Source: a virus
Length of the DNA: 64,000 bases
Strand: one strand, 5' to 3'
IMG/VR virus record: IMGVR_UViG_3300013104_000002
Coordinates: 1 to 64,000 of that record
Of the stretch, positions 19,891 through 61,147 are shown piece by piece (the first letter of the stretch is position 1; the number at the start of each line of letters is the position of its first letter). The translations under genes and the position numbers were made by a program. The notes below the pieces were generated by a model that saw only the letters and a program-made list of their open reading frames with translations, did not search any database and was not told the DNA's origin.

Positions 19891-19938
19891 ATTTGTATAT
19901 TCGTCTATCAACTTATAAAAAATAAGCCCTTAGAAACG

Positions 19939-20478: not shown

Positions 20479-20479
20479 A

Positions 20480-20668
20480 CTAATTTGTAGGCTTCTGTAT
20501 TCTTTGTAATTCTTTTCTTAGCCTTTCTTCTTCCTCATACTCAAGACTTGTAAAAGCTTCTACATATTTATCAATCAATATCTCAATACAGTCATCGTAA
20601 TTAAAGCGTCTTATATTGATTCCTAACTCTTGCATTTTATCTAGGTTTTCTTTAGCTTTTGGTGTCAT
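20480..20668 (-). CDS. hypothetical phage protein
   Basis: 62 aa ORF. Confidence 0.55.
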   Translation of the reverse strand: MTPKAKENLDKMQELGINIRRFNYDDCIEILIDKYVEAFTSLEYEEEERLRKELQRIQKPTN

Positions 20669-25306: not shown

Positions 25307-26399
25307 TATTTCTTATTTTAAGTTCTAACTGTTTTGTATACTCAATGCCTACTTTATCAGGTAAGTTACTGTTTGTGTAAAGTTCTTCTAAATCTTTAGT
25401 CTTTTGTGTCCACTCTTCAATAATTCCTTTTAAATCTAGATCTCCTCTCTTAATGCTTAATAGGTAGTCTCTGTCTTTGGTTCGGTCTACATTTATCGTA
25501 TTTTCTAAAGGAATTTCTTGGGCTGTCATAATGAGTCTCACTAAATGTAAAATATTTTTTGAATCTAATTGTTGACCGTGTTTTTTATTTGTTGCAGTTC
25601 TATTTTCATTTCTATTCTTAAGCCATTGTTCATATTCTCTATATTCTTTGCAATGTGTTGAGTAGCTTTCTCTATTCCAATAAATAATACCTTTCCAATT
25701 ATTAATAAGGTATTTTTCAATCTCAGATTTTCTAGGTTCATTAGAGTTGATATCACCAATACCTTTATAATTTCTAGTTTCAAATTTTAGATCTCTAGTA
25801 TCATTAACCCATTTTATATCGTCGGTATAAAGACGGTAACTGTCTCTGAACCCCTCTATTCCTGCTAAACCAATTTGATTTTGATTATAGTCATTATTTT
25901 TAAGCCAGTCTTTAAGAAGATAAGTTTGACCATCAGCTCTGTCTACAATTTTACAAAAATCTAAAATATCTTTTCTTACTACTCTACTTTCCTCCCAATT
26001 GTATTTTTTATTTAAACCTGAAGCTTTTATTAATTGCGTTTTTGCATATCCTGAATAAGTTTCATAACATTTTTTAGTTAAGAAATTATTTCTATTTGCC
26101 TTTAAATATTCATACTCTTTAGAAATTTCTAAAATACAATTTTCGGGTAAGAATAAAAGTTCAAGAACATTAGGATTACCAGTAGAGACTAACTCTAAAA
26201 AACGTCTTAATTCATAAGCCACATCATCTTTATTAATATCTATTTGAGGTATATAGTTATTAGAAAGAATATCCTCATTACTTTGAATATAGATAGTTTT
26301 GTAATCTATATCGGATGTTTCAGTAGCTAACCCGTAACTCTGACTCCCCACAATTCCTCTAAAAATTATTCTTGCATTTTTTGGTAAACTGTTTATCAT
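25296..26399 (-). CDS. DNA polymerase beta-superfamily nucleotidyltransferase (YcgL/RlaP-like)
   Basis: GSQSYGLATETSDID, GNPNVLELL, YSGYA..QL, DSKNILHLVRL, LLSIKRG. Confidence 0.9.
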   Translation of the reverse strand: MINSLPKNARIIFRGIVGSQSYGLATETSDIDYKTIYIQSNEDILSNNYIPQIDINKDDVAYELRRFLELVSTGNPNVLELLFLPENCILEISKEYEYLKANRNNFLTKKCYETYSGYAKTQLIKASGLNKKYNWEESRVVRKDILDFCKIVDRADGQTYLLKDWLKNNDYNQNQIGLAGIEGFRDSYRLYTDDIKWVNDTRDLKFETRNYKGIGDINSNEPRKSEIEKYLINNWKGIIYWNRESYSTHCKEYREYEQWLKNRNENRTATNKKHGQQLDSKNILHLVRLIMTAQEIPLENTINVDRTKDRDYLLSIKRGDLDLKGIIEEWTQKTKDLEELYTNSNLPDKVGIEYTKQLELKIRNNEL

Positions 26400-43595: not shown

Positions 43596-46500
43596 TTATA
43601 TTATTTTTGTTCCTTGTAATCTACTTTTTGCAATTTGTGATTTCTTATAAGCGTCAATTTGCTCTGGAGTCATAGATAAATAAGCATTTTCGTTTAAACT
43701 TGGTAAAGCTAGATTTGTTTTCGGAGTGTTTATATACTGTAATCCTACTCCTGGTACGTATTGAAAGTTTTCATTTTGACTATTAATCATATTAATATTT
43801 TCAATATCTTTATAATTCTGCCTATTCTGCAAATTTTGTTCGTTATAGTACGAACGCCAATTATTCTCATAATTATTAAGACCTCCTAACACTTGCTGCT
43901 CATATTGCTGATTAAACTGAGAATTTGTTAAGTCTTCTTTTGAACGTTGCCCCAGATTATATTGATCAATTTGGGCTTGATTTTGTGCATTAAAACTTTC
44001 TATTTTGGATATTGCGTCATTAGAAGCCATTTGAGAAGAAGCTAATCCTTGTGAAAGTAGGGCTTCTTGTGCTTGAGGTGGTAATCCAGATGCTTGTACT
44101 CTTGCTACGTCAGTTCCTCTTTGTCTTTCCTGCTCGGCTAAATACGGCTCAACAGTCTGTTTGGTAGGATCTAACCTACCAAGAGTTATTTGCTCTTTAT
44201 ATAATGGATCAAGTGCTGACGGTGCTAAACGTAAATCATCAGGAAGAAGTGGTAAAACATTTTTTATAATGTTTCGTTGTTCTACAACAGGTTTACCATC
44301 AACTACTACTTTTTCTTCTACTTTAATTTCATCTCCATTTGCCTTTTTAAAATCATAAAGCGGTCTTGTTGAAGAGAATGCACCAAACTTCCCATCAAAT
44401 TGCTGAACTCCTCTTCCAGAGAAACCTACCTGATTTATAATGTTATTAGTTTCTGTCTTAGATATTCCTGCTTCTTCTGCTCTCTTTCTTAATTCTTTAT
44501 TATAAGCATTTTGAAATTTTAAAATCTCTGGTTGTTGCCCTTCTTTTTTAACTGCATCTCTGAAAGCTTGTTTTTTAGCTTCTGTGTCAAAATACCATTT
44601 ATGTAGGTTAATCGTATCTTCTACATTTCTCATTTGTGCACCATATCCTGTCCCTGTAAAAGGTTGGGTTTGCTCTACATTTTGAAGCATGTCTTGGTTT
44701 ACAATAGAATTTCCAGATACGTCGTATCCTGGAATTGTTGGAGTATATCTTGTAGAAAATGAGAATCCTGCTTGTGTTCCTTCCTGAGCCATAGGTACAT
44801 CCCCTTCTGCTGGTTGTTGTAATTGTTGCATTACTCCTTGCACCATTTGAGTGGCTGTATTTTGATCAATACCTTGAGAAACTAATTCTTTTAATACTTC
44901 TTCTGGTGATGATCCTTGTGATAATGCCTGAGCTATGAAATTCATTATTTGCTCTTGATCTGATGAGGTAGGTTGTTCAGGAGTGCCTCCCTCTTGCATA
45001 GCTAAAAGTTCTTGTGCACGTTCTTCTGAAATTCCATATTTTGCTGCAATATTTGATATCTCCCCCCCTTGTTGATAATTTTTTCCTTGTTGAGCGACTT
45101 CTTTACCGTTTTCGTCAAATATTTGAGTACCATCTCCTTTTTTTGGAATAGACTCTTGTATAGAAAATAAATCATCAAACACCATAGATTGAGGATTACT
45201 TAACATGTCAAGTTTTGCTTTACTTGTTTCTATTTCTTTAGATAGAGCTATTTCATTAAGTCTTCTCGTAGTTTCATCTTCTATGTTTGAATTTTTACCG
45301 AATTTTTCTATAAGCCCTGATAAAAAATCTGTCTCTTTTTGAATGCCTAGTTTTTTGTCATATTGTTTTTGAGCATCAGAAAAAGTAGCACCTTTTTTTA
45401 ATTTTAAGTCGTATCTTTCTTTAAGCTCTTTTATATTTTTAGCTGGTATTTTAGTATAATCCGATAGTACTTTATCTCCACCATCTAATCTTACATCTAC
45501 ACCCTCTCCAATCTTACCATTTTTAATGTGTTTTTCACCAACAACTTCCTGCACATTCCCAGTATCTGCTTTTTTAACAAACTCTCCTGATTCTACATTA
45601 TAATTAGGCATGACTTGATCAGTCAAGTATTTTCCTGTAAGAACGTCTGAATTTTTTATTTCACCACCTTGTTGCATAGCGGTAAAAGGATTATAATAAG
45701 AATTAATATAGTTATTATATTCTGGGTTACTTTTTAAAACATTCTCTATATCTAATACGTTTTTACCATATAACGGATTCTTTTTCATATCTATTCCTTC
45801 CTCTGGAATAGGAACTCCATATATTTTTTGCATATTAAAGCCGTGTTCGTTTTTTTCTGTGTTTGAAAAAACTTTACCCCGACCATTGTAAACTTGGATC
45901 TTATCTTCTTCTTTTTTTAGGTTAAGTCTATTAGCTGTATTCATTTTCTCTTGGTAAGCATCCACAAATCCCTGTGCATCCCCTGCATAGTTTAAAACTC
46001 TGCCTATATTACTGTCAGCCTTTCCCATACCTGTTTCTGCCATAGCAATTGCTGCCAACCTGTCTATATCTTCACGTGACATGCCTCTCCCTTTAGCTAT
46101 TTCTATTACTTCGTTAAAACGCTGTGTAGGATAATTACCTGTTATTAAATCTTTGTTTGGATTAATAGGTTTATTAGTTGTTGCTCTTTTTGTGCGGTTA
46201 TCTTTAATATGTATATTATCAGGCTTATTGAAAGTGTTGAAATCTTTTTTTTGCCCTGCTAAATCGAAATCTAACCAATAAGTACCTCCTTCTTGAGCGT
46301 ATTGATAGTTTATTTTAGGATTATAAATATCATTAAACTGTTCTTTTCTAACTCTGTCACTTTCTTTTCCTGAAGCGTATCCTGTTAGAAAACTTCTTGC
46401 TCCTTTTAATACGGATAACCCTGCTCCTAATCCTCCTTGGAAATTATTACCTGAACCAAATCCTTGACCAGCATAATTTAAACTGCTCTCTAAATCTACA

Positions 46501-46913
46501 CCACTATAAGGATTTACTATATTATAACGTGTAATATCATTATATTGAGGCTGATTTCCTGCGATTTGATTAGTTAATTGTTGCCTTTGTTGTTCTGTTA
46601 AGTTTAAATCTTGACCTGAGAATTGATATTGACTGTCTAAATAATTTGTAGCTGGTGTAGCAGATTGGGAAGTAAAAGGTGACCCATTGAAATCATATTG
46701 AGGTATTTCTGGCTTTCCTACATAAGGAGTTGATGTGAAATTATTTACTATTGACGGATAGGTCATAGCATAAGGACTTGGATATTGCCCCCCTTGTTGA
46801 GCTTTATTCCTGTCTTTTTCCATGCTATAAGCTATCGCCGCGGATTGAGCTGAACTATAGCCCTCTTCTTTTAATTTTTTTATCTTGTAACTTATGTATT
46901 CTTCTCTGTTCAT
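43596..46913 (-). CDS. modular virion protein with seven QQGG-type motifs and a lysozyme/transglycosylase-like module
   Basis: AAIAMAETGMG...QVYNG lysozyme-fold pattern; NVESGE...GEKH module; repeated xQ[Q/E]G. Confidence 0.65.
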   Translation of the reverse strand: MNREEYISYKIKKLKEEGYSSAQSAAIAYSMEKDRNKAQQGGQYPSPYAMTYPSIVNNFTSTPYVGKPEIPQYDFNGSPFTSQSATPATNYLDSQYQFSGQDLNLTEQQRQQLTNQIAGNQPQYNDITRYNIVNPYSGVDLESSLNYAGQGFGSGNNFQGGLGAGLSVLKGARSFLTGYASGKESDRVRKEQFNDIYNPKINYQYAQEGGTYWLDFDLAGQKKDFNTFNKPDNIHIKDNRTKRATTNKPINPNKDLITGNYPTQRFNEVIEIAKGRGMSREDIDRLAAIAMAETGMGKADSNIGRVLNYAGDAQGFVDAYQEKMNTANRLNLKKEEDKIQVYNGRGKVFSNTEKNEHGFNMQKIYGVPIPEEGIDMKKNPLYGKNVLDIENVLKSNPEYNNYINSYYNPFTAMQQGGEIKNSDVLTGKYLTDQVMPNYNVESGEFVKKADTGNVQEVVGEKHIKNGKIGEGVDVRLDGGDKVLSDYTKIPAKNIKELKERYDLKLKKGATFSDAQKQYDKKLGIQKETDFLSGLIEKFGKNSNIEDETTRRLNEIALSKEIETSKAKLDMLSNPQSMVFDDLFSIQESIPKKGDGTQIFDENGKEVAQQGKNYQQGGEISNIAAKYGISEERAQELLAMQEGGTPEQPTSSDQEQIMNFIAQALSQGSSPEEVLKELVSQGIDQNTATQMVQGVMQQLQQPAEGDVPMAQEGTQAGFSFSTRYTPTIPGYDVSGNSIVNQDMLQNVEQTQPFTGTGYGAQMRNVEDTINLHKWYFDTEAKKQAFRDAVKKEGQQPEILKFQNAYNKELRKRAEEAGISKTETNNIINQVGFSGRGVQQFDGKFGAFSSTRPLYDFKKANGDEIKVEEKVVVDGKPVVEQRNIIKNVLPLLPDDLRLAPSALDPLYKEQITLGRLDPTKQTVEPYLAEQERQRGTDVARVQASGLPPQAQEALLSQGLASSQMASNDAISKIESFNAQNQAQIDQYNLGQRSKEDLTNSQFNQQYEQQVLGGLNNYENNWRSYYNEQNLQNRQNYKDIENINMINSQNENFQYVPGVGLQYINTPKTNLALPSLNENAYLSMTPEQIDAYKKSQIAKSRLQGTKII

Positions 46914-46957
46914 TTTGATGATATTTCTTTTAAAAATGCTTTTTCGGCTTCTGTTAA

Positions 46958-48232
46958 TTATTTAAAAACACCGGTATATAAAAGTGTTGTTTTGTTTGTT
47001 CTCTTACCTGATAAGTAAGCTTTTATGGTATTGTAATTACTAAACCCTAGTTCTTTACATGCTATTTTTAGATTCTTATATGCAATACTCGTAGATGTGT
47101 CTATAACCTCTTTAAAAGTCCATTCAGTAACTTTTCCTTCTTGAGCTTTTCTCCTATTTTCTATCTGTTGTTTTGTTAGTGGTGCGCGTTTTTTACCCCT
47201 ATTACCATCCCCTATTGCTTTTTTATGCTCCTCTGTTAAAGGAACTCCTTTTCTTTTATTTTTTACATCTGATTTTTTATGTGGTAGTGGTTTCCATTCA
47301 TCATATTTTTTATCTATGTCTTTAAATATCCATTCCTTACTCACAAGTCTATAACCTTTATAATTTTCTACAGTATTTTTTTCTAGGAGATTTAATCCAT
47401 AACGTGTCAATGTACTATTTTTTGTAAAATTTGTTATTGAAGTAAATTTATATAATTGATTATTATAGGATACTGTGTACATGAAACCATTTTGAATTTT
47501 ACTTGCCTCTATTTCAATATAGTCTTTATATTCGTCTTCATAGCAACACCACCATCTATTATCATACAAGCACTTATATTTTTTAAGAACCGAGTATAAC
47601 ATATTATTTGTTGTTTTTTCATTTTTTATTATAGACTTAGGTAAATTATTTTTACACCATATATGTAAATCATAAGTCTTATATGATAAATTATTTATTA
47701 AATCAAAAATTAAAATACTTCTCGCCCTATCATTTTTTAAACGGTATCCTTGACTCGTTTGTTGATAACCGAGTAGTAATTTATATATACTTGAATCATC
47801 TAAATTCTTATTTCTACAAAATTCTTTAATATTTTCACCTGTATGTATATTACCTTCAAAATCTATTAATTCAAAAGACTTTATAGATGCTATATTAAAA
47901 CCTCCCACTCCACCTATCGCAGTGTTATAATTATTCTTTCTTTTTATGTATTCTAAATTAACTGTGTTTTTCTCTACTTCTAAAGCTTCTTCATATGTGT
48001 CAAAAAATTGTAATACTTCTTTTATAAAATTATCGTATCCATATTTTAAAACGGCTTTTACAAAAGCAGATTTACAAGTCTTATTTATATTTTTTGCACC
48101 ATTTTGACTATAAACTCCACATCCTATGTAACCATCATTTATCTTATTTGTTTTATGAACCCCTATGTATTCTTTACCATTAATTATATTTATTGTTTTA
48201 TAAATGTAATTATAGGTCTTACTCTCTGTCAT
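46958..48232 (-). mobile_element. free-standing GIY-YIG homing endonuclease (Seg-like) with NUMOD-type DNA-binding repeats
   Basis: YIYKTINIINGKEYIG, GYIGCG, YNTAIGG, LTEEHKKAIGDGNRGK. Confidence 0.85.
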
Positions 48233-48247
48233 ATTCTTATTAGTTTT

Positions 48248-50683
48248 CTAACTTAATGGATATTCTGTAAATTTTGTAGCATTAGGGAAAGTATATTGTC
48301 CTGTATTTGCCTTTATTATTTTTGGCTCTCCTTTATCAGGTACTACATATAAATCTATATTCCCATAACCCTCGGTTGACATTACATTACCTTGTATTTC
48401 CGTAATTTTATTTGGAAACAATCTCTGTCCTTGGTTATTTTTTATTGTTGAACTTTTTACCTCCTTTAAAAATGCTAATTCTGATGGAGTTATCTCTCCT
48501 AAATTTATCCATTGATCTCTATCTTTGTTTATCGTAATTTTTTTTCCTTCCTGCGCGTAAGTATTACTATCTGTAGAATTGTAAGCAGTTTTGTTTAATA
48601 AGTTTAATAACTGATCTTTAGAGAAATGTTTTAAATTATAATCCTCTAAATTATAAGTTTCTACGTCTTGTGGAGTTATTACTTGATCTGGTTTCAGTTG
48701 ATAATTATATCTTAATCTGTTTAATTCTGCCTGATTTTCATCTATATCTCCTCTATAATTATTCAAACCTTGTATATTTTGAAGTTCTTGCGAAAAAGGT
48801 TCTTTAATATATTTATTATAAGTTGATGGATCTACATATTTTTGAAATCTATGGCTAAACTCATGTACTGGTATTCCTTGTTTATTTTGAAAATTATTAT
48901 CTAATAAAAGTCTGTCTGATACTCTGTCGTATTCTCCTAAAGTTGTTTCTCCTTCATTTTTACCATAATTTAAATCATCTACATAGATATCTGATGAAAA
49001 TGGTATTTGTGTTCCAGTGTTTATTTTAACACCGTCTACAACTCTATTTTGATTCCAATTATTTAACCATTTCCTTTGATTTTCTACTTCTAAAGTCTGA
49101 TCTGGAGTTAGGTTTCCAATTGTACCTCCTTGCTGAGCATAATTATTATATGTTTTAGAACTATCTGCTATATTATTCATTAACCAAATTATATCATCAT
49201 CTGTATAATTTTTCTGAAGTCTTGATTTTATAAATTCAGAATTTTTTAATTTATTTAAATGACCTTGATTAAATTTACCATCAGTTCGTGTATCATAAAT
49301 TCCATTTTTATACATTAGATATCTTAAAGCATCTATATCTGCTTTATTTTCTATTGGTTGAAAATCATGATCCATTTTGTTGTAAACTTTATTTTTTACA
49401 ATACCCTCTAAATCTTGTTTTCTAAAATCATCGTCTAATTGAAACTGTCTTTGTCTACCGAAAAGTTCTAAATTATCTTTATAGTTTAAATTTACTCCTG
49501 ATTGTAAAGCGTGACTAAGTTCATGCGCTCTAACAGCTTCTGTACTAGGATTAGGTTTAATTCTTTGTTTATCTATAGTAGGGTTTAATGTTAATTTATT
49601 ATCTGAAGGTGAATATCTAGATCCTTTATTTGCATCTGGAAATCCTTGAAATTCTCTATATAACTCTTGAAAATAATTATCATTTGGATTTTGTATATAT
49701 TCCTTAACTGTTTTTAGTTTATTTAGTCTGTATTTTACGACTTCTTGTGGATTTTCATATCCTTGCTGTCTTAGTCTTTCTAAATAAACTGGAGAATTTA
49801 AATAAGATTCTAAATAAGCTTTTGGATCAATATTTTTATCCTTTATTATATCTGGCTCTAGATTAGGGATGTTATCTTTAATAACCCCTCCTTGTTGCGC
49901 TATTTGAGTATCTATAAAATTACTAACTTGATTATATATTCCTGTTAAATCTGGTACTTCTGTTTGTACAATGGGCTGTTCTTGAGGTATTGGTTGTTGT
50001 GAAATAGGTTGATTAATCAAATTTTGGTAATCTTTCAAAAAATTGTACTCATTAGTTTGCTTTTTTACTTCTTCAATATCCTCATCCTTTTTATCAGGCT
50101 GTTCTTCTTTAATTTCTTCTGCTAAATTAGTGTTATCTGCTGAAATATCAAAATCTTTGACAGTGGTTGTTGGTAAGTTATCAAAATAAGAATTAGTTTC
50201 AGCAATTACTCTATCTGATATGGGTGTTGAAGCCATTCCTGAAAATGAAGAGTATATCTTGTTGACTTTTTTCTGCCTTTCTGGATTATTTTTGTACTTT
50301 TTGGCAGGAATCTCATATAAATCTGAAAACACTTGTCCAGCTTGATAAGCAGTAGTAGCATTCTTCAATCCTAAATTAGCTTTTTGATGGGTTGTTTCTA
50401 GTTCATGTCTAACAAAATCTAATTGATTTCCAAAATCAGTCCACTTATCCCCATATCTTTTCTTAAGGTCTTGTAATCTTTTTCCTCTAAATTGAGCTAT
50501 ACCAAATGACGAGCCTCCTCGGTATCCAATATCTCCCTCGGCTGATGTATTTAATCCACTCTCGTACACTAGATTTCCTACTATACCTGCTGTAGCTTCT
50601 GGGGAATAACCTTGAGAAATAAAATAATCATAAGCTATTTTTTCCTTTTCTCTTTGTTTTTGATAAGATTTAACTGTTGGCAT
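48248..50683 (-). CDS. modular virion protein: phage tail lysozyme + two zincin modules + C-terminal domain
   Basis: AGIVGNLVYES...FGIAQF...QLDFV (Phage_lysozyme2 type); AHELSH and VHEFSH; modules separated by AQQGG/AQEGK. Confidence 0.8.
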   Translation of the reverse strand: MPTVKSYQKQREKEKIAYDYFISQGYSPEATAGIVGNLVYESGLNTSAEGDIGYRGGSSFGIAQFRGKRLQDLKKRYGDKWTDFGNQLDFVRHELETTHQKANLGLKNATTAYQAGQVFSDLYEIPAKKYKNNPERQKKVNKIYSSFSGMASTPISDRVIAETNSYFDNLPTTTVKDFDISADNTNLAEEIKEEQPDKKDEDIEEVKKQTNEYNFLKDYQNLINQPISQQPIPQEQPIVQTEVPDLTGIYNQVSNFIDTQIAQQGGVIKDNIPNLEPDIIKDKNIDPKAYLESYLNSPVYLERLRQQGYENPQEVVKYRLNKLKTVKEYIQNPNDNYFQELYREFQGFPDANKGSRYSPSDNKLTLNPTIDKQRIKPNPSTEAVRAHELSHALQSGVNLNYKDNLELFGRQRQFQLDDDFRKQDLEGIVKNKVYNKMDHDFQPIENKADIDALRYLMYKNGIYDTRTDGKFNQGHLNKLKNSEFIKSRLQKNYTDDDIIWLMNNIADSSKTYNNYAQQGGTIGNLTPDQTLEVENQRKWLNNWNQNRVVDGVKINTGTQIPFSSDIYVDDLNYGKNEGETTLGEYDRVSDRLLLDNNFQNKQGIPVHEFSHRFQKYVDPSTYNKYIKEPFSQELQNIQGLNNYRGDIDENQAELNRLRYNYQLKPDQVITPQDVETYNLEDYNLKHFSKDQLLNLLNKTAYNSTDSNTYAQEGKKITINKDRDQWINLGEITPSELAFLKEVKSSTIKNNQGQRLFPNKITEIQGNVMSTEGYGNIDLYVVPDKGEPKIIKANTGQYTFPNATKFTEYPLS

Positions 50684-50686
50684 AAT

Positions 50687-51610
50687 TTAGTCTGTAATTG
50701 TTTCGTTGTGTGTGGTATTTTTAAGTATTAGGTTATATCGGCTATCAACAGCTCCTGATAGATTTATTAAAAACCATTCTCCTTTCATTCTTTCTAACAC
50801 TTTTTTTCCCCTAAACTTAACAGCATTTGTATTTATAGTTTTAAAAATATTGTTCTCATCTGTGGTGAACATTGGAATGTTGTTTTGTGAATTTATTATC
50901 CTATTGAAAAAGTAGTTTATTGATTGCTTTCCACTATCACTTGTGAAAAGTATTTCTTGGACATTACCATTAGTTTGAGGGTATTTTCTATTATCAGATA
51001 ATGTAAGTTGTGGATTTAATCCTAATAAACCAGAATTATTGGTTTGATTAAATATGAATAAATTTTTAAAACTCTTATTCTTGTCTTGCGTCCAGTCCCA
51101 ATCATTTACATAATGTATAGCATCTATGTTTAAAGATATAGAATTTAATATTTTATCTACATTTTCATTTGCAATAGGTAGTTCTATTTGGGGTATGTGT
51201 TTATTTCCTTGAAATATGCAGAAACTACTTCTGTTTAATAAATGATTCCAGAGTGTTTCTTTATCTTCTCCAAAATTATAACCTATTTGAAAATATCCAT
51301 TATGAGATAAGCTATAATCAGGATAGAAAGTATAAAATGAATTCCACGTTCCTTCTACTACATTAAAAGATATAGTCCAACTCACTTCTTTAAAATAAGT
51401 ATCGTCATCGAAAAAAACCTGTTGTTTACTACTTTTTATAGTAGGAGCCACAGTTTCAGTACACGAGCATATTACGTTATTATCTTCAGTAATGATTGGT
51501 GTACAACCTGGAGGACAGGATACAGCTTCTATAATAGTAGTACAGGTGCAATATGTTACACCTGATACTATTTCTTGATTACACTCTATGCTGGGACAAG
51601 TACATGCCAT
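50687..51610 (-). CDS. C-terminal part of split muzzle/tail stabilisation protein
   Basis: YFKEVSWTISF...WNSFYTFYPDY resembles the segment I recall following RLFITKKDY in crAss-like stabilisation proteins; Cys-rich N-terminus. Confidence 0.6.
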   Translation of the reverse strand: MACTCPSIECNQEIVSGVTYCTCTTIIEAVSCPPGCTPIITEDNNVICSCTETVAPTIKSSKQQVFFDDDTYFKEVSWTISFNVVEGTWNSFYTFYPDYSLSHNGYFQIGYNFGEDKETLWNHLLNRSSFCIFQGNKHIPQIELPIANENVDKILNSISLNIDAIHYVNDWDWTQDKNKSFKNLFIFNQTNNSGLLGLNPQLTLSDNRKYPQTNGNVQEILFTSDSGKQSINYFFNRIINSQNNIPMFTTDENNIFKTINTNAVKFRGKKVLERMKGEWFLINLSGAVDSRYNLILKNTTHNETITD

Positions 51611-51619
51611 AATTTTTTA

Positions 51620-51651
51620 CAAATATAAGTTATTTATTTTTATTGTGCAAA
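51620..51651 (-). promoter_or_regulatory. Bacteroidota primary-sigma promoter
   Basis: TTTG, 20 nt spacer, TATATTTG, filling the 41 nt gap before the 307 aa gene. Confidence 0.7.
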
Positions 51652-54600
51652 TTAATTAGTTAAAACCGTTACACCTTTTGATATTAATGTGCTAACTGCT
51701 GAATTTGAAGCCGATGTTCTTGGAGAATTACCTCCTGTCAAGTCTACTTTTCCGCTAGATGCCCATGTAGGAACAGAAAGATTAATTAATAGGTTATCTA
51801 CTTCTGTTGAACTTAGTGCACTGGTTGCAGATTTTATAGTTACTTCTTTCATATTATTTACCCAAGTTCTACCTGATGTATAATCTGCAATTGTGTTTGT
51901 TCCTTGTATACTAAATATCCTTACATTTGGGGGTATTAAAGCTACATTTCCAGTTAGTGAATTTTCATCTAAGTCTATAACAGTCATTGTTGAAGGAAAT
52001 CCTGAAATATCCCCCGTAATATTATTTCTAGTAGCTATTAATATACCTAGACTAGTTAGTTTTGCTAACTCACTTACTTTTATCTCAACCTTTCCGTTAT
52101 TCAGAGTATCTTGTCCAATATTCATAGATCCTATAGAATTAGCATATACTGTAGTTATGATTTCTCCCGTATAAGACGTAGTGTAATTATGACTGAGCGT
52201 ATTTAATCCCGCTGGATAAGTGATTATAGTACCATCTCCCCAATTTACTTGAAACGTTGTTGAACTATTTACACTATACAAAGAGAAATTATCCAAATCT
52301 GTTGCATATAATTTAAATTCTATAGGTAGGGAAGGGTTAACTGTTACTATTACTTCTTCTGGCTCAGGAGTACAATCCTCAAAATGTGGGGTGATTGTAT
52401 ATATCACTGTTCCTACTATTGACCCGCTGTTTGTTAAAGTTTGAGCTATAGAACTTCCCGAACCACTTCCAGCACCACTAACTCCACTAGAAACTGCTGT
52501 CCAAGTAAATGTGGCTCCTAAAGTCGAACTTGTTAGAGAAATACTTGTGGTATCTCCACTAGCTATGTTTTGTACAGAAGGAGTAGGAATTACATCAACT
52601 GTGCATGAACAGTCTGCTGGTTCAGTAGTTATTAAAGTACAGGTTTGATTAACTTCATCGTAAACATAGTTTGGAGGACATAATGGTGCAGATGTAGTTT
52701 GTCGCTCACAAAGTTCAGTTAATGAATTATAAGTAAATCCTGGTGGACAAGTTGTTGTATCTTCTCCACAAGTATAATATATTCCTGTTTCTTCATCATA
52801 ATCCAGACATTCTTCGTCCTTCACAATATAATCTTTTTTGGTAATAAAAAGTCTTTCCCCTCTGTCATCATACCACATATTGTATCCAATACCTTTATAC
52901 TTATTATCAGTATTCAAATTTGGGAATTGTTTTAGTATTTTTAAAGGAAGTTGCTCTTTAAACCATTGTTTCATGTTAGTTGGTTGACCCCCTGACTGTT
53001 CTGAAATAATCTCTACTCCCTGACCATTTGATTCTAGTTTAAATATTCTTCCTCGTTTTGCATCCACCCAAAAATGTCCATATGGTGTACTTACAATATC
53101 TGTATGTTGAGTTCCCATGAATCCTAAATCAGTTGACTTAAATTCAATAGGTCTTTGGTAAAACATTCCTGAAATCCCTGTTTCTCTGTTTTGAGGTGTT
53201 AGTTTCTCAGAAAAAACATCTATAGCATTATGTAAAAGTAATCTGTTTTCAAATCTTGCTATAAACTGATTACTTTCAATGTTATGCATGTCAATAAGCT
53301 TACCATTATTTGTCTTGAATTCATACCAATTTAAAGGTTTATATACTAACCACGGATTAGTTAAATCATTTTCATTTACTTCTTTTTCAGACCAGGTTAC
53401 AGCGTTATTTTGTAAATTTCTTTTTCTCCATATCTCTTTACTGTAAGTTTTATCAAAAAATTTATATGGTGAATTTGAAACACCTAAACTATATGAATTA
53501 TTATAGTGAAAAGTATTTGGTTCTGACATAGGCAGGTTAGCTTCCTGTAACCATGTACTTAGATTTCTATGTTGTGGATAAAACCATTCCTTAGGTTCAT
53601 TTTTGGCATATCGGAAATTACAATTAATTTCTGACTCAACCAAAAAATCTACTATTCCGTGTACAAATAAATAAAATTTACTAGGCGGTTTATAATAAAA
53701 ATCCTTTCTGCCTGTCTCGCAATCAAAAGCTGTTTCTGATTTTATGTCTGGGAAAGGTATTCCTGTATTGGTATATATCCCTCCTACTTCATAATCACAA
53801 TAAAAACGTGGAAAAGCCATATTATCGTTTTCAGAGTACAAAAATGGTAATTTATCTGCTAATTTTACTGCATTACTTCTAAATATAGGGGCTTTCTTTC
53901 TCCAACTAAATCTTGATATTACCGAAGTTCCGCCTAATATAGGGCTACATTCTGTATTTTGATCTAAGTCAAATATATAATTAGTTGTAAGCCATTTTAT
54001 AGAGTCTATTTTACCCCATTGATCTGGAATATAATTTTTTAAAGTAAAATAAGGAGACGCTACGTTTCTGTCTGCTTCTACTCCTAATTTACAGTTTGTC
54101 TCGGATGAAATAAAATTACTGCCTTTATTAGACTTATTATTATTGTCGTATGCAGTGTATTGAGAATAAGAGGAATAGTCAAATGGAAAGCTTTCACCAG
54201 TAGATAAGAAAACCGAGTGCTCTCTTAACCAGTTATTAATTTTTACCATTTCTCCTGTATTTTCATCAGTAAATGTATAATCTCCTTCTCTTAAATGTTT
54301 TTTTATGGCAAGTTTTCTAAGATACTCTGAAGAATATTGGTCGGCTTTTAAGAATTTATTATATTTTGCAACTCCTGTTTGCATATTAGCATAGTTATCC
54401 ACTCTGCCTAAGTCTCTGAAAATAGTTAACCAGTCATATCTGTATTTACCGATTCTTACATAAGCTGCTGCAATCATTCCTGCTGCTGCAATTCCTGCTC
54501 CTACTGCTCCTAAACTAAATACAAAACCTCCTTGTTGTAGGGCTATTAGCTCTCCAGTTTTTATAAGTACTTCCATTACAGCCTCTGCTATAGCTAAAGT

Positions 54601-57600
54601 AGTGGCAGTGCTTCTTGATTTGTCTCCTAAAACTGTCCATTGTGAATGCTCGTCTACTTTCGAAAAGCTACTCGTGCTGTTACCAAAAACAAATCCTTGT
54701 AAACTTACTTCTGTTGGTAAAGAAGGTCTGGTTAAAAAAATATCAGGACTTAAGAAAGAATACATGTGGTTTCTTTCTGAATTATATGGATGATTTATAA
54801 TATTTCCTTTTGGTTTTTCAAGCAAATATTTATTCTTACCTAAATCATTAAAAGGAAAATTACTAAAATTTATAGTTTCTCCTTCTTTCTCATAATTATA
54901 AAAATCAAAACCAATTCCATTTGCTATTACAGATTTGGATACTGAATTATCACCTCTTAATATTTCATATCCCTGAATATTATCTCTTTGTTTAGCTGTG
55001 ATTAACCCATTTGAATATGCAATATTTATAACAGTTTTTATTACATTGCTGTCTATTTGAACTCCTAATGGAAATATGATACTATCTGCATTTTGTCTAA
55101 AACTTAGGGAATCTATTATATAAGGGGCAACAGTGTTATCAGGCATTTTAGGGTGTCTGATAGGCTGGCATCTAAAGTCTGCATTTTTTAGTATGTAGTT
55201 TCCATTACTGTCTAATCCAGAAGTGTAGTAATTTAAAAATTCTTCCCTGTCTTTTTCGGATAATAGGTTTAAATCAGAACCATTTATTTTTATTTCTGAA
55301 CTATCCCACAATTCTTTATTGTCGTCATAAATTTCTGTAGACTCCCAATAGGCAGTTACTCCCTTTCTATAAGGTAGTGGATCGCAATCATTTACTTTAG
55401 GTATTTTGTACCTACATTGTGTAGAGTAGTCTTGTATCTTGTCTATTACAATACTATCCCAACTTACCGTTGCTGCCTCATATTCTGTTTCTCTAATGTA
55501 AACAGAAAAACACCCACAAGGAGGTATAACTTTGTATACAATCTTTGGATCACCTGGAAAAATATCACTGCAATCTGTATATATAGTCTCACTCATTATA
55601 GGTGAGTCAATTGCAATGTAAAAAGTAGGAGGTAAAAGAGCTAGTTGAGTTTCATTAAAAAATCTTAGCTCTCCATTATCCAAATCTACTATTTCTCCTC
55701 CTAAAACTGTTTTATTAGTGCAGTTATCATAAATAGTGTACCTTACTGTAGAAACACTTGGTAGATCGTCTCTATCATTACTTGAAGGGCATTTCGATCT
55801 TCTGGTTATTTCAAAAACCAAGCTTGATCTCTCGTTCTTATTTATCTTGAAAAATTGAGCTTTTTTGTGAAGTTTAGATTTAAAAACACTATTAGTTACT
55901 GCTACATTATAAGATGGTTGTAATAAATCAGCTTCTAAATCAGCTCCAGCGTAATTTAGAAATACACCTATTCCCGACTGAGATGGGTCAGATTGTACTA
56001 ACAAACTTTCGGCATATCCGCAAATTTCGTTACTAAAATTACTGTCTCTTACATAGGCTTCTCTTAAATCTCCACCTACCTTACATCCCATAAAGTTTTC
56101 CTCAAACTCAGTATCCCTTTCATAACCTGATCCGTCTACGTCTCTTTTATAAGGGCTACAGAAAGATGGAGGAACAGATCTTAAATAATCTTCCTCTTCT
56201 TTAGGATCAAGTACTGTTACCTCATTTACTACGCTTGAAATAATATTTGTTTGATTATCTAGATTTGCAGGTAAATCACAATCTCCTATAAAAGCAGGTG
56301 AACAATTTCCTGGATAAGCGTTATTTAAAGCATCTGTAATTATAGATATATTAGGATCATCTGGATGAGTCTCCACATACGTTTTTAAATCTTCATAGTT
56401 TTGATCTATTTCTATAGTTACTGATCCAGTATTTATAGTATATACATTTTCTAAAGTGCATGAATTTGTTGCAGGTTCCTCTATTTCTGTAGCTCCTTCC
56501 TCTATGTCTATACATGTTTCATTATAAGCATACGCTGTATTATATACCTGCCATTTTTTATTTCTGTCTGTAGATACACACTGAGAGCTGTTGTTTAAAA
56601 TACTATTTAAATTATTATCCTCTTCCAGAATATCATTTTCGCCTGGTAGTGCAGGTCTAGCAATTAACGGAATTGCTGTGGAATACCCTCCATTTTTGTA
56701 TAAAAGTCGCGCACTGAATGGTTGAACTTCATCTCTTGTAAAGCCTTTATATTTAGAATTTGCAATTGCACTTTTATATAGATTCTCCGAAGCTGCCGAT
56801 GTAGTCCAATGCAATAATCCTCCAAACAAGTTCATAACAGGTTGGACATTCAATTCTTCTTCTTGTACTAATCCTCCATGCCAAAGTACATCTCCACTTA
56901 CCATAGTGAATTTTGCTTTCTCCCAGTTAGGTTTAATTGCATTCAATGTATTAAAATCCATTCTCTTTTTAAGAGATACGTTTCCTCTGGCAATATACAA
57001 ATCATCATTACTGCTTCCGCTATGTGTATATATAACTGTATCGTCTGTTGTAGGGTAAATTCCTGCTAAAAACACTGATTGGGTGTTAACTACATTATTT
57101 CTTTCTACAACGGCTATTTTATAATATTTAAAATGCTTTACATCTAAATTCTCTACTTTTATTTTTATAGCAAAATTTGTAAATTCGTCTGTTTCTGTTT
57201 GAGATTGGATATTGTTATTTTCATCGAATATAGCGATAGGGTTAGTTGGGGAAGAATATTGAGTCATCTCATTTCCCATTAAATCGCAATAAGCCGCCCA
57301 AAACTCATAAGTTCCTTTTTTCAAATTACCACCTAATTGTTGTTCGGCAGGATTTAAAATTATTCTATTATGTTTAGGAAACATTAAAAGCTTATCTACA
57401 TCTATGCAGTTACTATAGGTAGAATCTTCACACGGCAATTCTAGCTCAAATAAATAATTTTGTGCACCTTTTTCAAGTAAATTAGTTACATTTAAAAATC
57501 TAGGTGGATTTCTATAATCATTCCAGTATAAAGTTGTCCCTAATTTCTCTTGATTGATTTCTATCTTTTTTGCTGGAAAATTAATATCAAAATTAAGTCC

Positions 57601-58083
57601 TGCATAAATATCTAAACATCTGTCATTAACTAGTTCTATATATTGTAAAGAAGGAACTTGTGTTACTGTTTCTAAAGGAGTTACAATAGGATTAAAAGCT
57701 TTTATACCACAACTATCACAATCTTCATTAAAATTAGTAGTTTCCTCGTTTTTGTAATTTATATTATTTATATCATTATTATCTACATACCCAATACTTG
57801 AACGTTTGTAATGAACACTATTAGTATCTTCTATAATACTAGTTAGAAAGTAATACGTATAATTTGAAAGTAAGTCTGTTTTTTTTCCAATGACTTTATA
57901 ATTTTCTGGGAATTTAACTCCATAATAATTAGAAGGTTCCAATTGGCTAATCTGGGTATCGCCTCCTTCATTACTAGATGTCATATTTACAGAAACTGTA
58001 TATTGTATATTCTTTAAATCCGCTCCATTTTTATCGCGTGACATTCCTAGTCGAGGGGATGAAATACTTTTATTATGTTTCAT
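51652..58083 (-). CDS. crAss-like tail stabilisation/muzzle protein (N-terminal part) with C-terminal Ig/PKD-like and LRR-like appendage
   Basis: GMSRD N-terminus, YWNDYRNPPR, IRHPKMPD, VESEINCNFR, GHFWVDAKRG, RLFITKKDY; position after IHF-like and tubular genes. Confidence 0.75.
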   Translation of the reverse strand: MKHNKSISSPRLGMSRDKNGADLKNIQYTVSVNMTSSNEGGDTQISQLEPSNYYGVKFPENYKVIGKKTDLLSNYTYYFLTSIIEDTNSVHYKRSSIGYVDNNDINNINYKNEETTNFNEDCDSCGIKAFNPIVTPLETVTQVPSLQYIELVNDRCLDIYAGLNFDINFPAKKIEINQEKLGTTLYWNDYRNPPRFLNVTNLLEKGAQNYLFELELPCEDSTYSNCIDVDKLLMFPKHNRIILNPAEQQLGGNLKKGTYEFWAAYCDLMGNEMTQYSSPTNPIAIFDENNNIQSQTETDEFTNFAIKIKVENLDVKHFKYYKIAVVERNNVVNTQSVFLAGIYPTTDDTVIYTHSGSSNDDLYIARGNVSLKKRMDFNTLNAIKPNWEKAKFTMVSGDVLWHGGLVQEEELNVQPVMNLFGGLLHWTTSAASENLYKSAIANSKYKGFTRDEVQPFSARLLYKNGGYSTAIPLIARPALPGENDILEEDNNLNSILNNSSQCVSTDRNKKWQVYNTAYAYNETCIDIEEGATEIEEPATNSCTLENVYTINTGSVTIEIDQNYEDLKTYVETHPDDPNISIITDALNNAYPGNCSPAFIGDCDLPANLDNQTNIISSVVNEVTVLDPKEEEDYLRSVPPSFCSPYKRDVDGSGYERDTEFEENFMGCKVGGDLREAYVRDSNFSNEICGYAESLLVQSDPSQSGIGVFLNYAGADLEADLLQPSYNVAVTNSVFKSKLHKKAQFFKINKNERSSLVFEITRRSKCPSSNDRDDLPSVSTVRYTIYDNCTNKTVLGGEIVDLDNGELRFFNETQLALLPPTFYIAIDSPIMSETIYTDCSDIFPGDPKIVYKVIPPCGCFSVYIRETEYEAATVSWDSIVIDKIQDYSTQCRYKIPKVNDCDPLPYRKGVTAYWESTEIYDDNKELWDSSEIKINGSDLNLLSEKDREEFLNYYTSGLDSNGNYILKNADFRCQPIRHPKMPDNTVAPYIIDSLSFRQNADSIIFPLGVQIDSNVIKTVINIAYSNGLITAKQRDNIQGYEILRGDNSVSKSVIANGIGFDFYNYEKEGETINFSNFPFNDLGKNKYLLEKPKGNIINHPYNSERNHMYSFLSPDIFLTRPSLPTEVSLQGFVFGNSTSSFSKVDEHSQWTVLGDKSRSTATTLAIAEAVMEVLIKTGELIALQQGGFVFSLGAVGAGIAAAGMIAAAYVRIGKYRYDWLTIFRDLGRVDNYANMQTGVAKYNKFLKADQYSSEYLRKLAIKKHLREGDYTFTDENTGEMVKINNWLREHSVFLSTGESFPFDYSSYSQYTAYDNNNKSNKGSNFISSETNCKLGVEADRNVASPYFTLKNYIPDQWGKIDSIKWLTTNYIFDLDQNTECSPILGGTSVISRFSWRKKAPIFRSNAVKLADKLPFLYSENDNMAFPRFYCDYEVGGIYTNTGIPFPDIKSETAFDCETGRKDFYYKPPSKFYLFVHGIVDFLVESEINCNFRYAKNEPKEWFYPQHRNLSTWLQEANLPMSEPNTFHYNNSYSLGVSNSPYKFFDKTYSKEIWRKRNLQNNAVTWSEKEVNENDLTNPWLVYKPLNWYEFKTNNGKLIDMHNIESNQFIARFENRLLLHNAIDVFSEKLTPQNRETGISGMFYQRPIEFKSTDLGFMGTQHTDIVSTPYGHFWVDAKRGRIFKLESNGQGVEIISEQSGGQPTNMKQWFKEQLPLKILKQFPNLNTDNKYKGIGYNMWYDDRGERLFITKKDYIVKDEECLDYDEETGIYYTCGEDTTTCPPGFTYNSLTELCERQTTSAPLCPPNYVYDEVNQTCTLITTEPADCSCTVDVIPTPSVQNIASGDTTSISLTSSTLGATFTWTAVSSGVSGAGSGSGSSIAQTLTNSGSIVGTVIYTITPHFEDCTPEPEEVIVTVNPSLPIEFKLYATDLDNFSLYSVNSSTTFQVNWGDGTIITYPAGLNTLSHNYTTSYTGEIITTVYANSIGSMNIGQDTLNNGKVEIKVSELAKLTSLGILIATRNNITGDISGFPSTMTVIDLDENSLTGNVALIPPNVRIFSIQGTNTIADYTSGRTWVNNMKEVTIKSATSALSSTEVDNLLINLSVPTWASSGKVDLTGGNSPRTSASNSAVSTLISKGVTVLTN

Positions 58084-59373: not shown

Positions 59374-60471
59374 TTATATACCTATTGTGTAATTTGTAAA
59401 ACATTCTGTCTTTGATCCGTTAAAAGGTATTTCAGGTTGGTAATTTAGGTCTTTCAATTTTATTTTTTCTACCACTTCTAAATCCCATATAAATCCTGCA
59501 CTGCCTTTTACTTCGCTAATTACTTCATACTCATAGGGCATTTTATCAACATTATTATATCTGGTTTCAATAGTATTAACTGTTATTCCGATTTTATAAA
59601 ACTCTTCATTTTCATTGAAACACCTCAAGGTATAAAAAGTGCATGTCCTACCTTTGGCTTTTTCTATGTATTTTTCACGAGTCCAACATGATTCTTTTGT
59701 ACATTTTGAACATCCCTGTCCTTTAATGTGATTGTTTGGAGTTTGTCTAAATATCCCGTGGTGTTCACATAAAATATCTATTTTTTCTGTACCTTTGGTA
59801 TACTCTGATTGGTAGTATGAATATCTACCATTATGTACTAAATTGGCTTCGTGAATAAACTCTTCTTTTGTTTTTGTCTGTTTATCTGACATAGCTTCTT
59901 TTCCACATTTAGTACACCCATGTCCATTCAAATGCCCATTGGATTTTTGTAAAAACTCTCCATGATTATGGCAAAATATTTTAACTTTACTGTTACTACC
60001 TTTATATTCTACTTTTGAGTAATCGTATTTGTCGCCATGAATTTCTTTCGCTTTTTCTATGAATTGTTCTGTGGTTTTTATAAGTTTACTAGATCTAGAT
60101 TCATTGGCACATTTGGGACAAATTGAACCGTTTAAATGACTTTTGGGTATTTGTTTAAAATCTCCATGTTTTTGACAAGTTATTACTACTTTTTCTTTTG
60201 AGCTTTTATAAATAGTGTTTAAATAACTATATGTCTCATTATGTATCTCATTTGATCTTGCTATAAATTCTTCGGTTGTTAAACTATGTGCACATTTGCG
60301 ACACTTACTTCCACTTAAATGTTTATTAGGAGATTGCGTAAATGACCCATGTTTTTCGCAGAATATTACTACTTTAGTATGATTATTTGTGTAATTTACT
60401 TTATCGTAGTTATACCTATCACCGTGTGCTTTTTTAGCTTTCTCTATAAATTCCTTTGTCTTTTTATCCAT
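59374..60471 (-). mobile_element. free-standing homing endonuclease-like protein with four DUF723-type Zn-binding repeats and C-terminal GIY-YIG-like domain
   Basis: 4x (EFI.KA...H...Y.Y...C..HG.F.Q....HL.G..C.KC); FYTLRC...FYKIGIT. Confidence 0.8.
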
Positions 60472-60472
60472 T

Positions 60473-61147
60473 TTAATTTCCCTCGATAGAATTTGGATTA
60501 TTATCCTCTCTAATTTGTCTAGTTATCCCTAATTTCTCTAGTGTCATAGTTTTTACTACTTCTAATAATTTGTCAGGACATACGAACTCTTTACTCCAAT
60601 TTGATCGACAAACATCTTTTTCTGAACAACTTGAACAATCCTCTGCATTAATATTATCTATTGTAAGAACTGTTAAGTCTACACTATATATTTCTTCATC
60701 TGGGATATACAGATGATTATCCGATCCTAAATATAAGTAAACTTCTCCTTTTAATCTATATTTTCTATTTTTATTTCGACGATATTGTGTTTCATCTATA
60801 AATGCAAATCTATAATTACCATCTAATGATACAATATCTTTTATACTACTACCTAGCCTAGAGAATAGTAATTTAGGAAGAGGTTTTTTAGACTTCATTA
60901 AAGTATTGCAAAGTCTGAATTCTATTGAAGGACAGTTTTTGGTGTTGATTTTTTCAAATTCAAAGCAAGGTATATTAGTATAAATATTAGTGTCAGACAA
61001 TAAACTCCTTTCTCCCCATTTTTGAGATATTAAAAAAGTTGCCGAATCTTCCAGTAGTTTTAGTATAAATCTTCTAGGAATCCTGCTATCCTTATTATTG
61101 GTTCGAAATAAGTTGGTAACCTCAGATACTATTGTGTTTTTATCCAT
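60473..61147 (-). CDS. tail ring/adaptor protein (crAss-like)
   Basis: position in tail module; Cys-containing; DSRIPRRFI...EDNNPN. Confidence 0.55.
   Translation of the reverse strand: MDKNTIVSEVTNLFRTNNKDSRIPRRFILKLLEDSATFLISQKWGERSLLSDTNIYTNIPCFEFEKINTKNCPSIEFRLCNTLMKSKKPLPKLLFSRLGSSIKDIVSLDGNYRFAFIDETQYRRNKNRKYRLKGEVYLYLGSDNHLYIPDEEIYSVDLTVLTIDNINAEDCSSCSEKDVCRSNWSKEFVCPDKLLEVVKTMTLEKLGITRQIREDNNPNSIEGN

Follow-up and report, generated by a model that had tools for sequence, protein, structure and literature searches.

Introduction

Storage and ejection of megadaltons of cargo protein are at issue in the crassviruses and their marine relatives, which are among the most abundant phages. 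The cargo proteins of Bacteroides phage crAss001, C1 (gp45) and C2 (gp46), are the closest described counterparts of a pair of proteins encoded on the minus strand of positions 1 to 64,000 of the IMG/VR virus record IMGVR_UViG_3300013104_000002 (hereafter the window). These two proteins, of 1105 and 811 amino acids, are built of modules that meet at a short peptide motif, Q-x-G-G, which we call the joint. As in this pair, C1 and C2 are encoded immediately behind the muzzle gene and ahead of RNA-polymerase-like virion giants, their chains have hardly any cysteine and a glycine-rich, hydrophobic N-terminal part, and hydrophobic-x-G-G joints delimit the ordered segments of gp45. The joint is of the type A-[YF]-G-G in crAss001 and Q-x-G-G here, and the lysozyme-led second protein of the window is without a crAss001 counterpart. 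The work on the crAss001 cargo makes no mention of a joint motif or of cassette exchange (PMC10172136).

Several other systems share part of this organization. Polyvalent proteins combine unrelated enzymatic domains in one injected polypeptide, with lysozyme or SLT and zincin-like domains as typical components (Iyer et al. 2017, PMC5512222), and that work describes no linker or cleavage motif (PMC5512222). The likeness extends to the neighbourhood, where a protein of 2125 amino acids carries an ART-PolyVal domain, but MPTase-PolyVal is not detectable here. In phi29 gp13 (PDB 3CSQ/3CSR), an N-terminal lysozyme fold is followed by a peptidase domain on a flexible linker, making it a tethered multi-enzyme in penetration like the 811 amino acid protein; it differs in having one fixed M23 domain, no cassette variation and no conserved joint, and in its location on the tail knob rather than inside the particle. 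Prohead proteases include gp21 of T4 as well as gp175 of phiKZ and gp245 of SPN3US, which cut at A-x-E (PMC10052503, PMC5694885). There, too, a short consensus recurs in packaged and ejected proteins; however, those systems have a recognisable protease and a motif that is also present in capsid and scaffold proteins, whereas here no such protease was found and the motif is confined to two proteins.

Processing at Gly-Gly-X is carried out by cysteine proteases of clans CE and CA, such as the adenovirus protease, pS273R of African swine fever virus (ASFV), coronavirus PLpro and the C39 double-glycine leader peptidases, which prefer a hydrophobic residue four positions before the cut. Their sites resemble the joint in a consensus that ends in Gly-Gly, in N-terminal-side specificity and in their position at the borders of functional units. 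They differ in that the fourth position before the putative cut is Gln here, with the hydrophobic residue one further back, and no C5, C48 or C39 domain accompanies it. By analogy, the joint may also be likened to the loading peptides of encapsulins and of bacterial microcompartments, which are short and linear, contain Gly, sit on disordered linkers and dock cargo inside a protein shell (of HK97 fold in encapsulins), although such cargoes usually have one terminal peptide each and not one per module joint. No description of the joint motif was found in the literature searched; as far as this search reaches it is undescribed, and it is much broader than the first-pass annotation of the window, made from the letters alone, could see.

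Results

A peptide motif confined to two proteins

The window is the first part of a complete phage genome of 146,490 bp with direct terminal repeats and approximately 30% G+C. Among named phages, the closest to it are phi17:2 and phi4:1 of Cellulophaga (Lightbulbvirus, 145 kb), with approximately 32% protein identity. The ten motifs listed in the first-pass annotation are all found exactly where it had placed them, in two open reading frames (ORFs; 43596-46913 and 48248-50683) that both exist. Seven conform to the strict pattern Q[QE]GG and three are degenerate (AQQGK, AQEGT and AQEGK). Among all ORFs of at least 80 amino acids in the complete genome (42,520 amino acids), the loose pattern xQ[QE]G[GKT] has 12 matches, 10 of them in the two cargo proteins; the remaining two are an AQEGK in a homing endonuclease and an LQQGG in a protein of 2143 amino acids. 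Comparison with shuffled sequences, proposed earlier as a check, gives an expectation of 0.05 loose matches when the two proteins are shuffled, and none of 20,000 shuffles reaches ten; the strict pattern is seen seven times against 0.13 expected. The pattern was defined post hoc, and the homologues provide independent confirmation.

At the motif, the usage of Gln and Gly codons matches that in the rest of the same genes (GGA 0.52 at the motif vs 0.49 in the background). Selection thus acts on the peptide and not on the RNA, as had been concluded from synonymous variation alone. AlphaFold models, built on homologue alignments, place every motif in a linker with a predicted local distance difference test (pLDDT) below 50 between confident domains.

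We collected 64 homologues of the 1105 amino acid protein and 65, later 80, of the 811 amino acid protein, all metagenomic. Q-x-G-G occurs at 271 sites in the 64 homologues of the former family and at 125 sites in 66 of the latter, with a generalised logo [Y/V][A/M/L/Y]-Q-x-G-G-x-[I/V] in which the residue after Q is [Q/E]. Across these hundreds of sites, variation in the linker largely spares the Q and both G, which are near-invariant. The motif is essentially absent from approximately 70 unrelated phage proteins with the same lysozyme domain, and none is found in the neighbouring giant virion proteins of the relatives. Cysteine is nearly absent from both families (none in 57 of 64 and in 58 of 66 members, respectively); in crAss001, gp46 is without cysteine and gp45 has two.

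The residues within the motif vary by genome. The exact pattern is missing from phi17:2, where the aligned positions carry LKSGG, FQSGG, YQNGG, LKEGG and AQAGG. In six IMG/VR relatives of approximately 140 kb, Q-N-G-G is the form found in both proteins (some sites have I, R or D in place of N), and in the clade of the window both use Q-Q-G-G or Q-E-G-G, so that an identical residue change appears at several orthologous joints in two proteins. This shared flavour, together with the near-invariant Q, G and G in variable linkers, argues against a passive linker and in favour of a single reader common to both proteins, whether protease or binding site. Judged from the sequences, one partner probably reads the motif of both proteins.

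A second joint flavour, K-K-N/P-G-G-W-L-D-K-Y, is present inside and at the extreme C-terminus of the homologues P0064, P0065, P0119, P0123, P0137 and P0141. Some relatives end in KQPGGWLDKY, with the GG five or six residues from the C-terminus, a place where a cleavage site would be surprising, whereas a docking or capping element would be at home there.

Joints are sites of cassette exchange

When every homologue was split after Q-x-G-G and the pieces were clustered, the motif-defined modules had tight lengths and their architectures were combinatorial. In the 1105 amino acid family, a hairpin (approximately 40 amino acids), an optional module (~130), a Gly-rich module (~170) and a conserved module (~201) make up the N-terminal part, and a mini-module (26), an optional module (55-97) and a C-terminal body (400-490) make up the rest. 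Members of the 811 amino acid family have a lysozyme with linker (~262 amino acids), zero to four cassettes drawn from at least eight types, and a C-terminal module of approximately 80 amino acids. Minimal relatives of 300-420 amino acids in this family are reduced to a single joint between an N-terminal enzyme, which is lysozyme, SLT or SLT_2, and the C-terminal module. Close relatives are mosaic: one, for example, has the lysozyme at 87% identity, no zincin-1, and zincin-2 at 68%. Of the internal BLAST alignment ends in the lysozyme family, 53% are no more than 10 amino acids from a motif, compared to 8% for random positions; the corresponding values for the 1105 amino acid family are 24% and 9%.

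In the window itself, residues 211-417 of the 1105 amino acid protein are an extra cassette relative to the 27 closest homologues. The family of this inserted cassette comprises 400 representative clusters (126 at E<=1e-30) and occupies varied positions in proteins of 226-2423 amino acids. An xxGG-x-hydrophobic joint lies within 45 amino acids after the cassette in 97 of 114 cases, against a background of 34% (e.g. KKFQMGGSLPG, EEFANGGLF, SKKKNGGWLD and PQFQQGGNI). The expectation that orthologues gain or lose whole modules exactly at the motif is thus borne out by the fixed lengths, the mosaics and the alignment ends, and the suggestion that the linkers serve as points of cassette swapping holds for both families. 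In these modular proteins, the motif forms the joints and is where cassettes are exchanged.

The lysozyme-led protein

The division of the 811 amino acid protein into a lysozyme, two zincin-like modules and a C-terminal domain with motifs at the borders, as first proposed, agrees with the database matches, the recurrence of the approximately 80 amino acid unit and the linkers in the AlphaFold model (Table 1). The lysozyme belongs to PF18013 (residues 14-147, 109.5 bits against a gathering cut-off of 28.2). With this domain, two HExxH modules and the C-terminal module, the chain unites at least two disparate activities in one polypeptide, as polyvalent proteins do. In Pfam the HExxH modules have a weak match to Peptidase_M91 (E 0.044). 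Because HExxH is kept in all zincin cassettes of the family, these cassettes are probably active. The C-terminal module was considered as a second CARG1-like portal anchor and showed no similarity (hhalign E 0.38).

The C1-like protein

Module 2 of the 1105 amino acid protein, its most conserved part, has a weak similarity to the portal-bound domain crAss_CARG1, with an hhalign E of 0.032 against gp45 alone and of 2.7e-4 (probability 41%, 43 columns) against an alignment of four CARG1 sequences. There is no match to PF25725 at the gathering score, a family to which gp45 of crAss001 itself matches with 222 bits, and no Pfam family is found on the whole protein or on residues 418-613 at E up to 5. 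On this profile similarity, the protein is probably a distant counterpart of crassvirus cargo protein 1, and we do not call it a member of the family.

The inserted cassette (residues 211-412) had been described as transglycosylase-like. This was not confirmed: the cassette has no match in Pfam, short homologues included, and a profile of 15 sequences has no sequence match in the PDB. A weak language-model lead points to SLT (score 0.90, 33% share), and the cassette may possibly be a divergent lytic transglycosylase. Its family has an invariant Glu (residue 293) within A-L-Q-E-T and an invariant Y-N-G.

Three helix-hairpin units of the protein, at residues 1-37 (46803-46913), 618-638 (45000-45062) and 652-698 (approximately 44820-44960, all on the minus strand), share K-x-G-[YI]-S-x-x-x-A-x-x-L, and the 26 amino acid unit matches the N-terminal one with an hhalign E of 6e-4. 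Fold searches with the whole 1105 amino acid model, which is large and multi-domain, gave coiled-coil noise only in Foldseek and a best Z of 8.1, to helical hairpins, in a wide VIA-align search.

Both genes occupy cargo positions

The virion module is a minus-strand block from approximately 84 kb down to 20 kb of the genome and encodes the large terminase and the portal. Within it, the order of muzzle, cargo and giant proteins parallels that of crAss001 (gp44 muzzle, gp45 and gp46 cargo, RNA-polymerase-like giants from gp47). A CrAss_Ring_2 homologue in combination with this gene order indicates a crass-like virion plan. The position that characterizes crAss_CARG1 proteins, after the muzzle and before giant RNA-polymerase-like proteins in a phage with a crass-type tail barrel, is also that of the genes described here. 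Homology gives a further, indirect indication of a role in the virion: the PHROG families are labelled "virion structural protein" or "tail protein", and orthologues in Cellulophaga phages carry virion structural annotations. The pair sits in the cargo (ejection) positions of a crass-like, Lightbulbvirus-related marine phage.

A search for a processing enzyme

Six-frame searches of the complete genome, made family by family with controls that worked, gave zero matches to Peptidase_C48, C39, C5, S78, S77, ClpP and MPTase-PolyVal, the last (PF18818) having none at E up to 1. Nor did a protease appear when the structural genes, head-module ORFs included, were scanned against Pfam and PHROGs, with part of the approximately 190 ORFs scanned against the full libraries. 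A prohead protease, which had been presumed to lie outside the window, is thus not detectable in the complete genome as an enzyme of the S77, S78 or ClpP type. The internal zincins were considered as a general processing enzyme and rejected: 42 of 81 relatives in the lysozyme family carry the motif without HExxH, and the 1105 amino acid family never has HExxH. A motif that is widespread without HExxH does not have the zincins as its general reader.

Compared to Gly-Gly polyproteins, the consensus sites are present at the borders, but a cognate protease encoded by the virus is missing from these searches. Apart from the two single matches mentioned above, the motif is confined to the two proteins, and none is found in capsid, scaffold or portal proteins. 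The earlier proposal of a polyprotein system therefore stands in part. The proteins are modular, carry the motif at module borders and are, by position and homology, virion or ejected proteins, whereas the motifs are candidate cleavage sites. A packaging or docking tag, named in the first-pass annotation as an alternative, fits the facts at least as well as cleavage.

Joints in crAss001 gp45

Zincin cassette 2 recurs in P0097, P0103 and P0107, which bear crAss_CARG1 (PF25725), and in P0097 the joint after zincin-2 reads NYAAYGG, compared to TYAQQGG in the clade of the window. The same NYAAYGG also begins the CARG1 match. In gp45 itself, the joints read NFSAYGG (GG at 209-210), NAFAEGG, LKAFGG, NAFGGWL (GG at 427-428) and MFAYGG (GG at 562-563). 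NAFGGWLN stands at the start of the portal-bound domain.

In the structure of gp45 obtained with cryo-EM, residues 214-245 are in the tail barrel and residues 425-552 are on the portal wing, and the authors take both to belong to a single portal-spanning chain (PMC10172136). Joints, or the residues just past them, are where the ordered pieces begin. The tail-bound helix 214-245 starts four residues past the GG at 209-210, and A425-F-G-G428 is inside the modelled portal-bound chain, at its N-terminal edge. Since the latter joint is within an ordered chain, the model implies that the bond after GG 428 is intact in the virion.

Table 1. Coordinates of the two cargo proteins, their modules and joints, and neighbouring genes discussed in the text.
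Feature	Position	Strand	Comment
1105 aa cargo protein (P0001)	43596..46913	-	phrog_36695 virion structural protein; hhalign to CARG1 E 2.7e-4
Joint AQQGG, aa 38-42, behind N-terminal helical hairpin	46788..46802	-	
Joint AQEGG, aa 206-210	46284..46298	-	aligns with YQNGG of phi17:2 gp041
Inserted cassette, aa 211-412	45678..46283	-	missing from all 27 closest homologues; large family without Pfam model
Joint MQQGG, aa 413-417	45663..45677	-	homology to Cellulophaga/crAss-like proteins begins exactly here; G416 invariant
Module 2, aa 418-606, most conserved part	45096..45662	-	53-member cluster, ~201 aa
Tandem joints AQQGK and YQQGG, aa 607-617	45063..45095	-	
26 aa helix-hairpin mini-module, aa 618-638 with following joint	45000..45062	-	42-member cluster of 25-35 aa; helices 618-626, 630-640
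Joint MQEGG, aa 639-643	44985..44999	-	aligns with FQSGG of phi17:2 gp041
Degenerate joint AQEGT, aa 709-713	44775..44789	-	
C-terminal body, aa 714-1105, beta region and ~100-residue helix	43599..44774	-	cluster 0; AlphaFold helix 946-1046
Homing endonuclease gene between the two cargo genes, outside the system	46958..48232	-	phrog_314, E 2e-26; one chance AQEGK
811 aa cargo/ejection protein (P0002): lysozyme, zincin-1, zincin-2, C-terminal module	48248..50683	-	PF18013; AlphaFold domains 1-149, 277-507, 523-702, 731-811
Phage tail lysozyme domain, aa 1-149, phi29 gp13-like	50237..50683	-	Pfam E 1.9e-31; PDB profile 3csr E 1.5e-4; Foldseek 3csq E 2.5e-4
Joint AQQGG, aa 262-266	49886..49900	-	pLDDT<50 at 259-276; Q263 and G265 invariant in 44 homologues
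Zincin-like cassette 1, aa 267-515, HELSH at 386	49139..49885	-	module cluster 9; HExxH in 18/18
Joint AQQGG, aa 516-520	49124..49138	-	pLDDT<50 at 508-522
Zincin-like cassette 2, aa 521-709, HEFSH at 605	48557..49123	-	module cluster 8; HExxH in 21/21
Degenerate joint AQEGK, aa 710-714	48542..48556	-	aligns with YAQQGG of homologues, NYAAYGG of P0097
C-terminal ~80 aa beta-rich module ("module 5")	48251..48541	-	36-member cluster; pLDDT ~90; constant family end
Muzzle-position giant virion protein, two ORFs (2143 and 307 aa)	50687..58083	-	phrog_37948; directly upstream of cargo genes; synteny with phi17:2 gp043 and crAss001 gp44-gp45
Crassvirus tail ring protein 2 homologue (CrAss_Ring_2)	60473..61147	-	PF25702, E 9e-28

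Discussion

The reading that we favour, as a leading but tentative candidate, is that the joints are uncut hinge-and-recognition elements of cargo proteins organized as beads on a string. In the 811 amino acid chain, a cell-wall lysozyme is followed by variable enzyme cassettes, here two zincin-like peptidases, and by the constant C-terminal module of approximately 80 amino acids. The chain of 1105 amino acids is C1-like: behind a Gly-rich N-terminal part come an inserted cassette, a domain with weak similarity to the one by which gp45 binds the portal, and finally a long helical tail. The joints, hydrophobic-hydrophobic-Q-x-G-G-x-hydrophobic in otherwise variable, disordered linkers, may have a dual function. 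The Gly-Gly would be a hinge that lets each bead fold and unfold independently while the chain, partly extended in storage, is threaded from N to C through the portal and the tail. The residues on either side may form a recognition element for a single shared partner, either within the particle or during ejection. In the virion the chain would not be cut, in line with what the crAss001 model implies about gp45. A new cassette would work only with a joint that it brings or that is kept, which would account for the exchange of cassettes at the joints. Three points here are inferred: an uncut chain, a partner that reads the motif, and the identity of that partner.

Several observations weigh against this reading. 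One motif per joint is the classic pattern of polyprotein cleavage, and a docking signal has no obvious need of it; moreover, conservation is mostly on the N-terminal side of Gly-Gly and fades behind it, as expected for cutting after GG. The link to gp45 is the weak profile similarity described above (E 2.7e-4, probability 41%, no Pfam hit), and the intact bond is one structural observation from another phage with a different motif flavour, in which the continuity of the chain is an inference of the authors of PMC10172136. The mass spectrometry of crAss001 from 2023 was made on an unresolved gel band and carries no size information. We matched the published peak lists from matrix-assisted laser desorption/ionization (MALDI) analysis of the 2018 crAss001 gel, bands 1-9, to all structural proteins (PMC6235969). 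Bands 3 to 9 were assigned to gp50/gp47, gp49, portal gp20, gp26, gp22, gp25 and gp23. No full-length gp45 was seen at 80-100 kDa, and gp45 never rose above the shuffled expectation in bands 1-9, the upper part of the gel, though the portal, present in the same 12 copies, was found. In the text of the paper, gp45 is not listed among the proteins identified from the gel (PMC6235969). If anything, these data lean weakly towards processing of gp45.

Polyprotein processing could well account for much of this, although we incline against it. The joints would then be cut, most likely after Gly-Gly, by an unrecognised phage protease, a co-ejected one (zincin) or a host protease, freeing the modules as the head matures or, more likely, once they have been ejected. 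Disordered linkers with one motif at each module border, a conserved non-prime side followed by a variable and then a hydrophobic residue, and a genome-wide flavour that fits one active site are what such an enzyme would be expected to see, and the N-terminal hairpin of approximately 40 amino acids and the 26 amino acid mini-module are bounded by motifs in the manner of propeptides. HExxH is always retained in the zincin cassettes, zincin-like peptidases have been proposed to process polyvalent phage proteins (PMC5512222), motif-defined cutting of ejection proteins is known in giant phages (PMC10052503), and the gel of crAss001 lacks a full-length gp45 band. This reading has to contend, however, with seven protease families that are without a match in the complete genome and none in the scanned structural genes, with zincins that are not universal (no HExxH in 42 of 81 lysozyme-family relatives, nor ever in the 1105 amino acid family) and with the absence of the motif from capsid, portal and other virion proteins. 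The gp45 joint at 425-428 is uncut in the virion model, the terminal motifs leave only five or six residues to be removed, and tethered multi-enzyme tail proteins such as phi29 gp13 function uncut.

If the joint were instead a passive linker or recombination scar, i.e. a helix stop with a flexible Gly-Gly that is inherited with cassettes since the recombinants are viable, and that nothing reads, several joints directly behind helices (21-38 and 630-640 in the 1105 and 260-263 in the 811 amino acid protein) and the frequent exchange seen in mosaic architectures would be readily explained. We consider this unlikely: the Q and both G are near-invariant in linkers that otherwise vary, changes of flavour are concerted across several sites and across the two proteins of a genome, no conservation at the DNA level is present to drive homologous exchange, and ordinary lysozyme-bearing tail proteins manage without the motif. 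A signal in the RNA is very improbable. At several sites in the window, CAA-GAA-GGA-GGT spells the Shine-Dalgarno-like AAGGAGG(T), which might direct internal starts or ribosome pauses. Against this, the Gly codons at the motif are those of the background, an in-frame start codon follows within six codons at only 12 of 60 sites, and the QNGG flavour destroys the purine run; a Shine-Dalgarno or internal-start function is rejected on the codon statistics. To our knowledge, Bacteroidota, the likely hosts, are largely without Shine-Dalgarno initiation.

The joint motif, conserved and specific in form to each genome, is a handle in the sequence that predicts domain boundaries, marks natural cassette swaps and implies a reader, be it a protease or a docking site. 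Joints of this kind also border the members of a large cassette family, which has no name, across hundreds of big phage proteins, and the rule probably reaches well past this genome. A bolder possibility, which we would sooner doubt than assert, is that hydrophobic-Q/K/A-x-G-G-x-hydrophobic joints form a "punctuation code" widespread among the proteins that crass-like and other phages inject, cut after delivery into separate effectors by a Gly-Gly-specific protease of phage or host that co-evolves with the flavour. If true, this would be the phage counterpart of polyprotein maturation in adenovirus and ASFV, and a plug-and-play system for effector cassettes.

Additional observations on the virion gene block

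The muzzle-position protein is encoded by two ORFs in different frames (50687-51610 and 51652-58083, minus strand). The ORF of 307 amino acids matches the last approximately 240 positions of a PHROG profile of 2289 positions, the ORF of 2143 amino acids has a PKD-like domain close to its end, and phi17:2 has a single protein (gp043). This could be a split gene, a frameshift or a genuine arrangement of two genes.

Other members of the block are proteins of 897, 1682, 734 and 2125 amino acids. The last of these (27121-33498, minus strand) has its ART-PolyVal domain at the N-terminus (E 2.2e-8) and contains zero Q-x-G-G joints. Three homing or HNH endonuclease genes with matches to phrog_314 and phrog_681 interrupt the block (46958-48232, 59374-60471 and L002:5903-6847, all on the minus strand), and the structural block of crAss001 likewise contains endonuclease genes. 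The virion block ends with an RlaP-like nucleotidyltransferase (25296-26399, minus strand; PF10127, E 6.6e-22). At approximately 19900-20500, a strand switch and a change of sign in GC skew separate a plus-strand early block from the minus-strand virion block.

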